Assembly (NCBI GenBank): GCA_044892505.1
Contig: CM097883.1
Location: 197,160,001 to 197,224,000 of the forward strand
DNA from: Schmidtea nova
Taxonomy: Eukaryota
DNA length: 64,000 nt
Reading direction: 5' to 3'
Shown in pieces: positions 47,613 through 50,600 of this stretch (position 1 is the stretch's first letter; each line of letters begins with the position of its first letter). A model generated the notes under the pieces. The model saw nothing but the letters and a program-made list of their open reading frames with translations, did not search any database and had not been told where the DNA came from. A program made the translations under genes and the position numbers.

Positions 47613-50600
47613 TGGTGGGTTGTTGATCGTCAATATGACCTTGACGTTTCTATGGCTCTCATCAACAACTCAACACATAAAACATTTAAACTACCATCTT
47701 GTTACCCGTCACTATGTAACGTTGGTACTGTAACAAGTGGGTGGGTATTCGCAATCAGTGAGCGTCGTCAATACGAAACTATGATTGACCGAATATCTCC
47801 TGGGTCCAAGGGCTACCGATAGAAGGTTTAATGCCCATTTTGTCCCTCCTTTAATGATTGATCTATAAGCATTCAACAAAATTTTATCGGAAATTCAACA
47901 TAAACACTCTACACAACTATAAATTCATTATTGCATCCAACTAAATTATTTCGAGCATCAAAAACACTAATATAACCCTATTTTTACCAATATTGCATTT
48001 TATGATAATTAATACATAAAATATTATATTTTTATAGAAAAATTTTAATCTGCATTTGAAATTTAAGAAAAATTTTAATTATTACCGTAATTTAATCCAG
48101 TTTAGAAATAATAAAAATAAAATTTCCGTTTGTTTAAAATTGCTAATTTAATCAAAAGGACAAATTTACTCAATTTAAAAATCATATTAATTTTAAATGT
48201 AATTTTCTGAATTTTTCAATAAATTGATAAATTAACGATTTCTATAGTTCAGATCAACAAGAAATGGACCTCTCCAGAAACTACGAAACCAGAGGAAAAT
48301 TCTCCCACCCCAAACGGGTCAATCCAATTAGAACTCGAGCTCCTATGAAGCAAAATAGCCCGCTCTACCAACCAAGTAAAATTTTGATTATTTCAGAATT
48401 ATAATTTATTTTGAACAATTTTAGAAAATTTCTTGAAGAGAATATGTTGGAACTGGCCCTTCAAGCATTGTAAACCGGAAAAAAATCCTTGCCGGGGACT
48501 CTTATCCCTCAAACTGAATTTTTATCAATAAATCTTTAGATAAAAATTTTTTTCGTCTTTACTCTTTTTCGTTTGAGTTTTTATTATTTTTATGAAATTT
48601 TTGTAAATTAAAAATAAACTGTAATGTAAATGGCCTATTTGGCTGGGTAAATTCAATTTTATATGGTAGGTTTGAATGATAGAAATTTTTGTATGGTTTT
48701 TCTGGATGTATGTTGCCGACTAACATAACTGTGTAGAATTTTCAGTATGGTTTGCTTGTGTGTATATAACTATTGAATGCTAATAAATGGTACTGTGTAT
48801 GTGTGTTTATTGTATTTTAAATATATGTTGCTTGTGTATTAGTATGGGAAATGTTATTGAATGAAATGGATGTAATTTTTTGCAAATAGGGATGCATTAT
48901 GATTTTTGAGATATCGTGGGGGTATTTATAATATATATATATATAAATTATATAAAATATTTTTAAAATTAAAATAATAATAATAATTTTTATATTAAAA
49001 TAATAATAATAATAATACTTTTTATAAATTTTAGATTTATAATTTTTATGAAGTAATATAATAATAAAATTTCCAATTTTTATATCATAAATTTTTATAA
49101 TACTTTTTATAAATTTTAGTTTTATAATTTTATGAAAATAATACAATAATAAAATTCCTAATTTTTATATTATAAATTTTTATAATGCTTTTTATAATTT
49201 TAATAATATAATAATACCATTTCTAATTTTTATAATATGAATTTTTATATTCGAATTTTTATATTTTAAGTATATATATATATAGTAAAAAAAATTTTTC
49301 CTATAGAATTTTGAAATTTTGGATTTTTTTGAAATGATAAAATTTTCAATATACTAATAATATTTTCGATTTAAAATTTTTATGGGTTTCAATATAAGTT
49401 TTGATTTATAAATTCTTAGGAATTTTATAAAATGACAAAATCTTTTATATCATAACAATATTCGGAGAATTTTTGGTTCACAATTATTCATTATAAAAAT
49501 TTTCCAATATAATAAAAAGTAAATTTTTATTTTTTGATCGAAACGAAATTCACATAATAATAAATTTTTCATCCATAAATTTCGAAATCTAAATAAGCAT
49601 TTAATCTAAAAAATTTTATATGCTAAATAAAAATAAAATAAAAATAAGTTATAAATTTTTCAACGAATATTTCCAACATCGAGTAAAGTAAATCTCGGTT
49701 TCGTCCGAGCATGAATTTCCCAATCAAAGTGCGCGCGAAATTTTCGGGACACTTCACTTAGGAACTTCAGGCTCCCGAAAACAAGATTTACCAGAGAAAA
49801 ATTATTTATATAATAAACGGGGTTTAATTCAGATCATCAACACTTGTCCTAATAATTCATTTCATTTCGAAATCATTATATCAGTTTCGAGCATTATTTC
49901 ATGTGATTCTTTTTCCAACATTAGCTTCCATTGACTTGCGCTTTCGGATAAGATGATAGATGTTGCGAGAGTGAAGGCGACGACGAGTAAACCGTCCTTG
50001 TACAATTAATTTTCCTAATGGAAAAGACGTTACTGGATAGATTTGTCTTCACGTTTTCATGTAGTATTAATTTTCAATATATTAAAATTATAAATTCGGA
50101 TAAGCTACATTTATTATAAATAAATATCATTAATATAACACCTTGCCTTGGGCCAAGCCACTGTTCCCCAGTTGGGATGAAGTGATCTTGGATGGTTAGG
50201 CTATTCACCTGAACTCGGAAAAATGGACTGATCGATTTACGTATCGAACCAGCGATCCGCTCAGGCTACTTCCACCCGATCGGCACAAGGCCAGACACAG
50301 GCTTCAGGGGGTATGGAAAAAAAATTTTTTTATTTAGATACTTTTATCATTTATTAAGATAATATTGTGAATTTAATTCTCTGAGATTTTGTGACAAACA
50401 ACAAAAACAAAAAAAAATTATTAGTAAATATTTTAATATTCATTCAATAAAAATATCATAGCAATAATAATATAAAATTATAAAAATATTACCGGTACGG
50501 GGTAATCGAACAGGCATGGTGTTCGATGACCCCGCGCCAACAAAAGAATAGGACTTACGAAATCAAAATTTACAAGCTTTCTTGAAAAAATTTCACAAAA

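Follow-up and report, generated by a model that had tools for sequence, protein, structure and literature searches.

Burro and GYPSM1 are giant gypsy-like elements of planarians (PMC6431247; this and the other PMC papers are cited for the accessible parts of their texts). The accessible part of that paper mentions neither an LTR RNA structure nor a primer of Burro, and that of PMC11410931 mentions no RNA fold in Burro LTRs. No description of one appeared among the papers listed by the literature searches. For HIV-1, the PAS and the PBS domain have been described: a box on the U5 side complements the T arm of the primer, and an A-rich loop complements its anticodon loop (PMC3675109, PMC3185550, PMC11181671). 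The function of the PAS is contested even in HIV (PMC3185550). In avian sarcoma virus, a U5-TpsiC interaction has been reported and a U5-IR stem has been named (PMC3185550). Ty1 has a 5' pseudoknot, a tertiary contact at the 5' end of its RNA, which is needed for reverse transcription and is bound by Gag (PMC4974528). Extended primer contacts have been described in Ty1 and Ty3 (PMC5371799, PMC3592414).

The window (the whole 64-kb stretch of Schmidtea nova DNA that was analysed) contains an LTR element and several copies of a conserved module, which forms the last ~240 nt of 3.6-kb LTRs:

33506..51243, minus strand: non-autonomous Ty3/gypsy LTR element, 17.7 kb, Burro-like by its layout, with TG...CA ends and a 4-bp target duplication (ATAA)
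47613..51243, minus strand: 5' LTR, 3.63 kb
33506..37145, minus strand: 3' LTR, carrying a module copy at 33506-33742
38271..42308, minus strand: remaining ORF with part of an integrase, ankyrin repeats and fibronectin-III-like repeats
47603..47612, minus strand: 10-nt spacer from the LTR end to the PBS, outside the LTR
47585..47602, minus strand: 18-nt PBS, complement of the 3' end of host tRNA-Pro(UGG)
56860..62335, plus strand: solo LTR with a TATG duplication, ending in a module copy (62097-62335)
56019..56208, minus strand: module copy of sister subfamily A2, without D1
27796..28026, minus strand: old, decayed module copy of family B
28508..28725, minus strand: module copy of the distant family M

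The two LTRs are 99.5-99.8% identical in aligned blocks. As in Burro, they are several kilobases long, and the element has TG...CA ends and a target duplication. The first ~590 aa of the remaining ORF share 49-50% identity with the polyproteins of two ~25-kb elements that carry the same module and PBS. Both of these examined elements have RT, RNase H, integrase and ankyrins in a giant polyprotein, and in one of the two a CCHC knuckle is present and a fusion glycoprotein precedes the protease. Their layout is that of Burro (fusion glycoprotein between gag and pol, PR-RT-RH-IN, ankyrins), with the fusion domain in one of the two, whereas the giant polyprotein layout is absent from the window copy itself. 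Only its sequence from the integrase onward matches full-length relatives, gag, env, protease and RT had no match in it, and a protein search added only generic integrases. On the basis of layout, the element can be classed as Burro-like. The module is retained in this deletion derivative devoid of gag, env and RT, and 40 of 40 scored relatives are 99-100% identical.

Several observations concern the surroundings of the element and its kin. Before the 3' LTR (37146-37200, minus strand), an 8-bp hairpin and TATTTTA abut TGTTGG, with no purine-rich PPT. TATTTTA mirrors the spacer found at the opposite end, and the cDNA would therefore have long A/T extensions past CA on either side. A hairpin lies 3' of the PBS (47500-47584, minus strand), and in some families (L092, L099, L171), a unit consisting of a degenerate PBS tail and the post-PBS hairpin is repeated further downstream. 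Module-bearing LTRs often lie within or beside other module-bearing LTRs, sometimes inside the module (L027, L089, L215, L256, L062). The window also contains a further module fragment near 29442-29518 and a separate small gypsy element without the module (7538-12067, minus strand; identical 107-bp LTRs, gag and pol ORFs). Two near-perfect hairpins (26341-26425 and 1144-1205) have sub-threshold matches to miRNA families on both strands and are probably inverted repeats. A 304-aa ORF (31231-32145, plus strand) with a weak DUF4371 match is likely a DNA transposon remnant.

From 5' to 3' on the LTR sense strand, the module of the 5' LTR has the following parts, the hairpins being predicted:

47842..47848, minus strand: sharp 5' homology edge, where different upstream LTR sequences join
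47816..47826, minus strand: D1 box A, CCUUCUA(N)CGG, conserved
47802..47807, minus strand: D1 box B, GRACCC, a complement of the T-arm 5' strand in tRNA-Pro
47746..47795, minus strand: D2 hairpin, variable stems flanking a conserved bulged segment (UAG / GCUCAC)
47694..47740, minus strand: D3 hairpin, two covarying helices
47722-47729, minus strand: D3 8-nt internal loop ANNWCCAA, opposite one G
47603..47682, minus strand: D4 hairpin, with a large bulge at 47647-47660
47674-47682, minus strand: D4 5' strand UUUUAUGUG, pairing across the LTR end with CA and the spacer

The original prediction had placed a selected RNA fold at the 3' end of the LTR. The LTR anatomy agrees, the sense strand of this LTR being the minus strand. 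It had compared five copies; the family-M copy, which was not on its list, is a sixth and distant one, with 65.7 bits at 28532-28725 in a covariance model built here. The three compensatory changes of the original prediction are found where it had put them (TTGTTGC/GCAACAA at 56105-56142; TCGA-attt-TCGA at 56171-56182, minus strand; CATTCA/TGGATG at 27923-27972, minus strand), as is the unpaired change in the copy at 62100. Among 114 family-A copies, the change in D3 (86 A-U, 20 G-C, 8 unparsed) and the change in D2 (90 U-A, 22 A-U, 2 unparsed) are real compensations, but each amounts to one subfamily split; no parsed copy has a mixed state. The third divides. In 30 old family-B copies, U-A to C-G (21 of 30) and U-A to U-G (24 of 30) hold family-wide, while the G-C to A-U of copy 27796 occurs in only three, beside 8 A-C and 2 G-U. 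The third change is partly decay, the frequencies of this last pair being about those expected from independent decay. The five copies represent only one or two evolutionary events, and the case rests on distant families.

A single 243-nt copy folds no better than its shuffles (z of -1.28 in sense and -2.0 in antisense), so the evidence is comparative. The 5' motif of the module has 13,607 exact matches in the genome (control: 0), a variant pattern of it has 660 (control: 21), and a PBS-only search returned 666 sites whose spacer is no longer than 6 nt. The 30 PBS-selected loci examined all keep the motif order while differing in their stems, and none of the 30 was picked up by a family-A/B profile. 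For the alignment, 234 motif matches were reduced to 51 by motif and <93% identity filters; one was swapped for the window copy, six were dropped as redundant or interrupted, and four divergent ones were added. The resulting 49 rows have a mean identity of 57%, equivalent to ~24 effective sequences. Across these copies, the stems are rewritten and the loops kept. Because rows were selected by loop motifs and not by stems, loop invariance is partly built in; the unbiased check on loops is the PBS-selected set (87 rows). Pattern scans of metagenome contigs (1 match) and of viral contigs (25 matches) gave none with the downstream domains. Two of these matches reach 25-28 bits in the covariance model, having been picked by box A/B.

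The absence of covariation from a larger alignment had been named beforehand as refuting the fold; covariation is present. RNAalifold returned 22 pairs, all with double changes, and a covariation term of -6.3 of -11.4 kcal/mol. In a 39-pair model over the 49 rows, 86.1% of cells are paired, compared with 33-41% when the strands are slid, and 30 of the 39 pairs have double changes. Helices were compared with tree nulls for the 39 rows outside families A and B. Under diversity-matched nulls, the observed pairing of the inner and outer helices of D2 and D3 was reached in none of 4,928-5,743 runs, and that of the D3 base in 2 of 5,824. Low-rate nulls, in which up to 296 of 4,000 runs reached the observed value for the four main helices and 1,242 for the D3 base, were set aside and replaced by the diversity-matched ones because their columns are far less variable than those observed. 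At the level of single pairs, where power is limited, two exceed the 95% tree-null maximum at all four rates and two more at some. When D3 strands were permuted across families, the maxima of 5,000 permutations were 68.6% and 72.1%, against 75.5% and 79.4% observed. A global AU/GC linkage was left out as evidence, since kin share changes.

The strand of the fold is the LTR sense strand. The 49 rows contain 138 G-U and 54 A-C cells, an excess driven by few columns (15 vs 11 pairs; one column alone holds 13 A-C cells), and GNRA caps, read on the sense strand, occur in 26 of 49 rows, being found on D2 in most other families. As judged from sequence comparison, a real four-part predicted fold is conserved across very different families.

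The D4 hairpin of the window has a z of -5.5, which none of 200 shuffles reached. Its predicted energy is -23.8 kcal/mol with the spacer (5' LTR) and -16.6 in the 3' LTR without it, and the spacer is present only in RNA from the 5' LTR. One member per group was folded with the PBS blocked (9 of 87 rows lack an exact anchor). In 23 of 24 groups, the D4 base UUUAUG can pair across the LTR end with the terminal CA and at least 3 spacer bases, and the helix ends 1-3 nt before the PBS in the groups folded. In family A, both strands of the D4 base are two nt longer, and the spacer is 10 nt in the window element but 6 nt in the other families. Integrase may instead be the reason why the spacer is conserved, as TATTTTA precedes the 3' LTR too. 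In one subtype of family A (L171, L172, L173, L175, L184), the D4 bulge contains a palindrome, CCAUGG, that might serve as a dimer contact.

The apical loop of D3 has 3 nt in the family of the window element and is a UAGGG-bearing loop in the long-loop families. In the 39 long-loop rows, this loop complements the D4 bulge (mean -7.9 kcal/mol, compared with -3.9 when shuffled). Matched loops and bulges are also better than crossed ones (-7.9 vs -7.4 kcal/mol, permutation p 0.018 with no tree correction); some families have GGGA/UCCC, another has GGGU/ACCC. A kissing contact between D3 and D4 is likely in these families rather than proven, because its core is nearly invariant. Families A and B, which account for 10 of 49 rows and include that of the window element, lack the contact, their loop having 3 nt. 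By sequence, the tRNA D loop is another candidate partner of the D4 bulge; it was rejected because the base beside the bulge varies with the D3 loop.

The genome has 821 matches to the tRNA-Pro(UGG) gene pattern, some with an altered anticodon loop; the genes L201-L204 (near 459.6 Mb) form a tandem array with a 308-bp period. Families with a primer other than tRNA-Pro were not found among the 30 examined of 46 matches. Box B is a complement of tRNA positions 51-56. It reads GRAYCC in 83 of the 87 rows selected by PBS, and its two variable places are those at which a G-U wobble with the tRNA is tolerated. The box upstream of the PBS can form 6-9 pairs with tRNA positions 48-55 (about -11 to -16 kcal/mol). 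When D1 is paired with the T-arm window, box B takes part in the best duplex in 48 of 49 rows. Compared with shuffles, the T-arm complementarity of D1 has a median p of 0.06 and counts as one evolutionary trial; the G-richness of tRNA-Pro and the near-universal GGUUC of tRNAs weigh against it as evidence. Neither box A nor box B has a conserved cis pairing partner in 14 representatives, and a link to the tRNA explains neither box A nor the D2 motif. The CCAA of D3 complements UUGG of the tRNA anticodon loop and, equally, UUGG at the spacer/PBS junction.

The module resembles the HIV-1 leader in having a conserved box against the T arm, a loop against the anticodon loop (here CCAA) and a hairpin 5' of an 18-nt PBS. 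It differs in its 6-10-nt spacer predicted to fold into the hairpin, its extra predicted domains and the probable kissing contact. The PAS is masked in a stem, while box B is mostly unpaired, lies ~200 nt from the PBS and faces tRNA-Pro; the predicted PAS of HTLV-1 is 10 nt upstream (PMC11251516). Compared with the Ty1 contact, which spans the PBS into gag, the parts of the module are all upstream of the PBS, and the superfamily and primer are others. In avian sarcoma virus, an internal inverse copy of the LTR end forms a hairpin that abuts the PBS, and U5 pairs with the primer T loop. The module likewise has a hairpin that includes the LTR end and ends beside the PBS, in 23 of 24 groups as given above, but it is longer and multi-domain, and no sequence relation was shown.

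We consider the module a real conserved cis-acting RNA, a variant of the retroelement 5'-leader/PBS domain as far as sequence comparison can tell. The original prediction of a selected fold beside the PBS is backed by the covariation, the tree nulls and the adjacency of D4 to the PBS. For its function, we give an about even chance to a 5'-leader structure that would place the tRNA-Pro primer and start reverse transcription. Most likely, the module would be R-U5 of the genomic RNA. Homology begins at an edge 8-25 nt ahead of box A, and the 110 family-A copies have 11 types of sequence upstream of it; an abrupt homology start with varied upstream types is expected if R starts there, and we infer that it does. 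A search of sequencing runs listed no RNA run. In contigs from four runs (one study, type unstated), the LTR end and the 5' edge (47841 and 47851) appear as loose ends, and Tn5 adapter letters suggest that these were DNA libraries. D4 would be the hairpin at the initiation point, which reverse transcriptase meets first, as with the retroviral U5 stem. Box B would capture the T arm that is freed when the 3' 18 nt of the tRNA anneal to the PBS, as proposed for the HIV PAS. D3 may dock on D4, the kissing contact packing it against the primer site, and the CCAA in its loop might recognise the UGG anticodon loop or else mask the first bases of the PBS.

The functions originally listed were packaging, initiation of reverse transcription, export and a ribozyme. 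Of these, initiation has the most anatomical support. Somewhat unlikely, yet the main rival, is a packaging, dimerisation or nuclear-export element, with loops and bulges that bind Gag/nucleocapsid or a host protein and the PBS as a mere neighbour. Protein sites typically combine conserved bulged motifs with stems that are free to vary, the module is retained in non-autonomous copies mobilised in trans, and the D3 loop, UAGGGA/U, corresponds to the hnRNP A1 motif. The Ty1 5' pseudoknot is a Gag site (PMC4974528). However, box B and the end of D4 1-3 nt before the PBS are left unexplained, and the base after GGG covaries with the D4 bulge, which favours RNA-RNA pairing. This function is compatible with primer placement, and both may be true.

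It is tempting to go beyond primer placement and to see the module as a tRNA-reading RNA machine, a counterpart of the T-box, in which the internal loop shows codon plus purine and changes with tRNA identity. The module would grip the anticodon loop (D3 CCAA), the T arm (box B) and the 3' end (PBS). The D3 loop would mimic the tRNA D loop (both UAGGG), so that the arriving primer would break the D3-D4 kiss and thereby turn on reverse transcription. CCAA complements UUGG of the anticodon loop but also that of the spacer/PBS junction, no switch of primer was seen among the 30 examined of 46 matches, and the loop E partner strand of T-boxes is absent. We consider this elaboration unlikely.

Quite unlikely is a transcription-start or 3'-end signal, with box A as core promoter or R start and hairpins that bring a poly(A) hexamer near a U-rich element, as hairpins of HTLV-1 bring the hexamer close to the downstream element. 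The sharp homology start before box A would suit it, as would an AATAAA 20-30 nt after box A in three families (20 of 23, 7 of 7 and 7 of 17) and UUUUAUGU, which resembles a U/GU-rich element. Against this, the other seven clusters have no hexamer at a common place, and UUUAUG is accounted for by D4 pairing.

It is very improbable that the 5' end of the RNA is made by a self-cleaving ribozyme of some new class. The invariance of the loops, the kissing contact and the sharp edge at the 5' side would be in keeping with one, but the young family with the most copies lacks the tertiary contact, and cleavage inside R-U5 would cut the template of strong-stop DNA. As to known classes, Rfam returned no match over the module in the window at E up to 1, nor in 12 loci of other families at E up to 5. 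By eye, hammerhead, HDV, twister, twister-sister, pistol and hairpin cores gave only partial word likeness. The module is likely a built-in initiation signal rather than a ribozyme.

At 47755-47763 and in most families, the 3' strand of D2 reads GCUCACCUG, the antisense of which is a splice donor (CAG|GTGAGC) and which, on the sense strand, we take to resemble the 5' end of U1 snRNA. The weakest alternative, that inherited inverted repeats or DNA motifs (such as this donor) acquired double changes by chance, can draw on the single-copy folding and on the one pair that is decay, but is made most improbable by the tree-aware nulls, the slid controls, the D3 strand permutation, the excess of G-U over A-C and the GNRA caps.

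Apart from those of a few retroviruses and of yeast Ty1, structured leaders have received little study. The more than ten thousand copies in this genome, spread over at least a dozen diverged families, amount to a natural mutagenesis, which defines the helices, the invariant loops and the kissing contact. The module motif can also serve as a short marker of where Burro-like LTRs end. Should the primer be engaged by box B and CCAA, extended contacts with the primer, which are disputed even for HIV, would reach the env-bearing gypsy elements of invertebrates, and they would be addressable on a 260-nt RNA.
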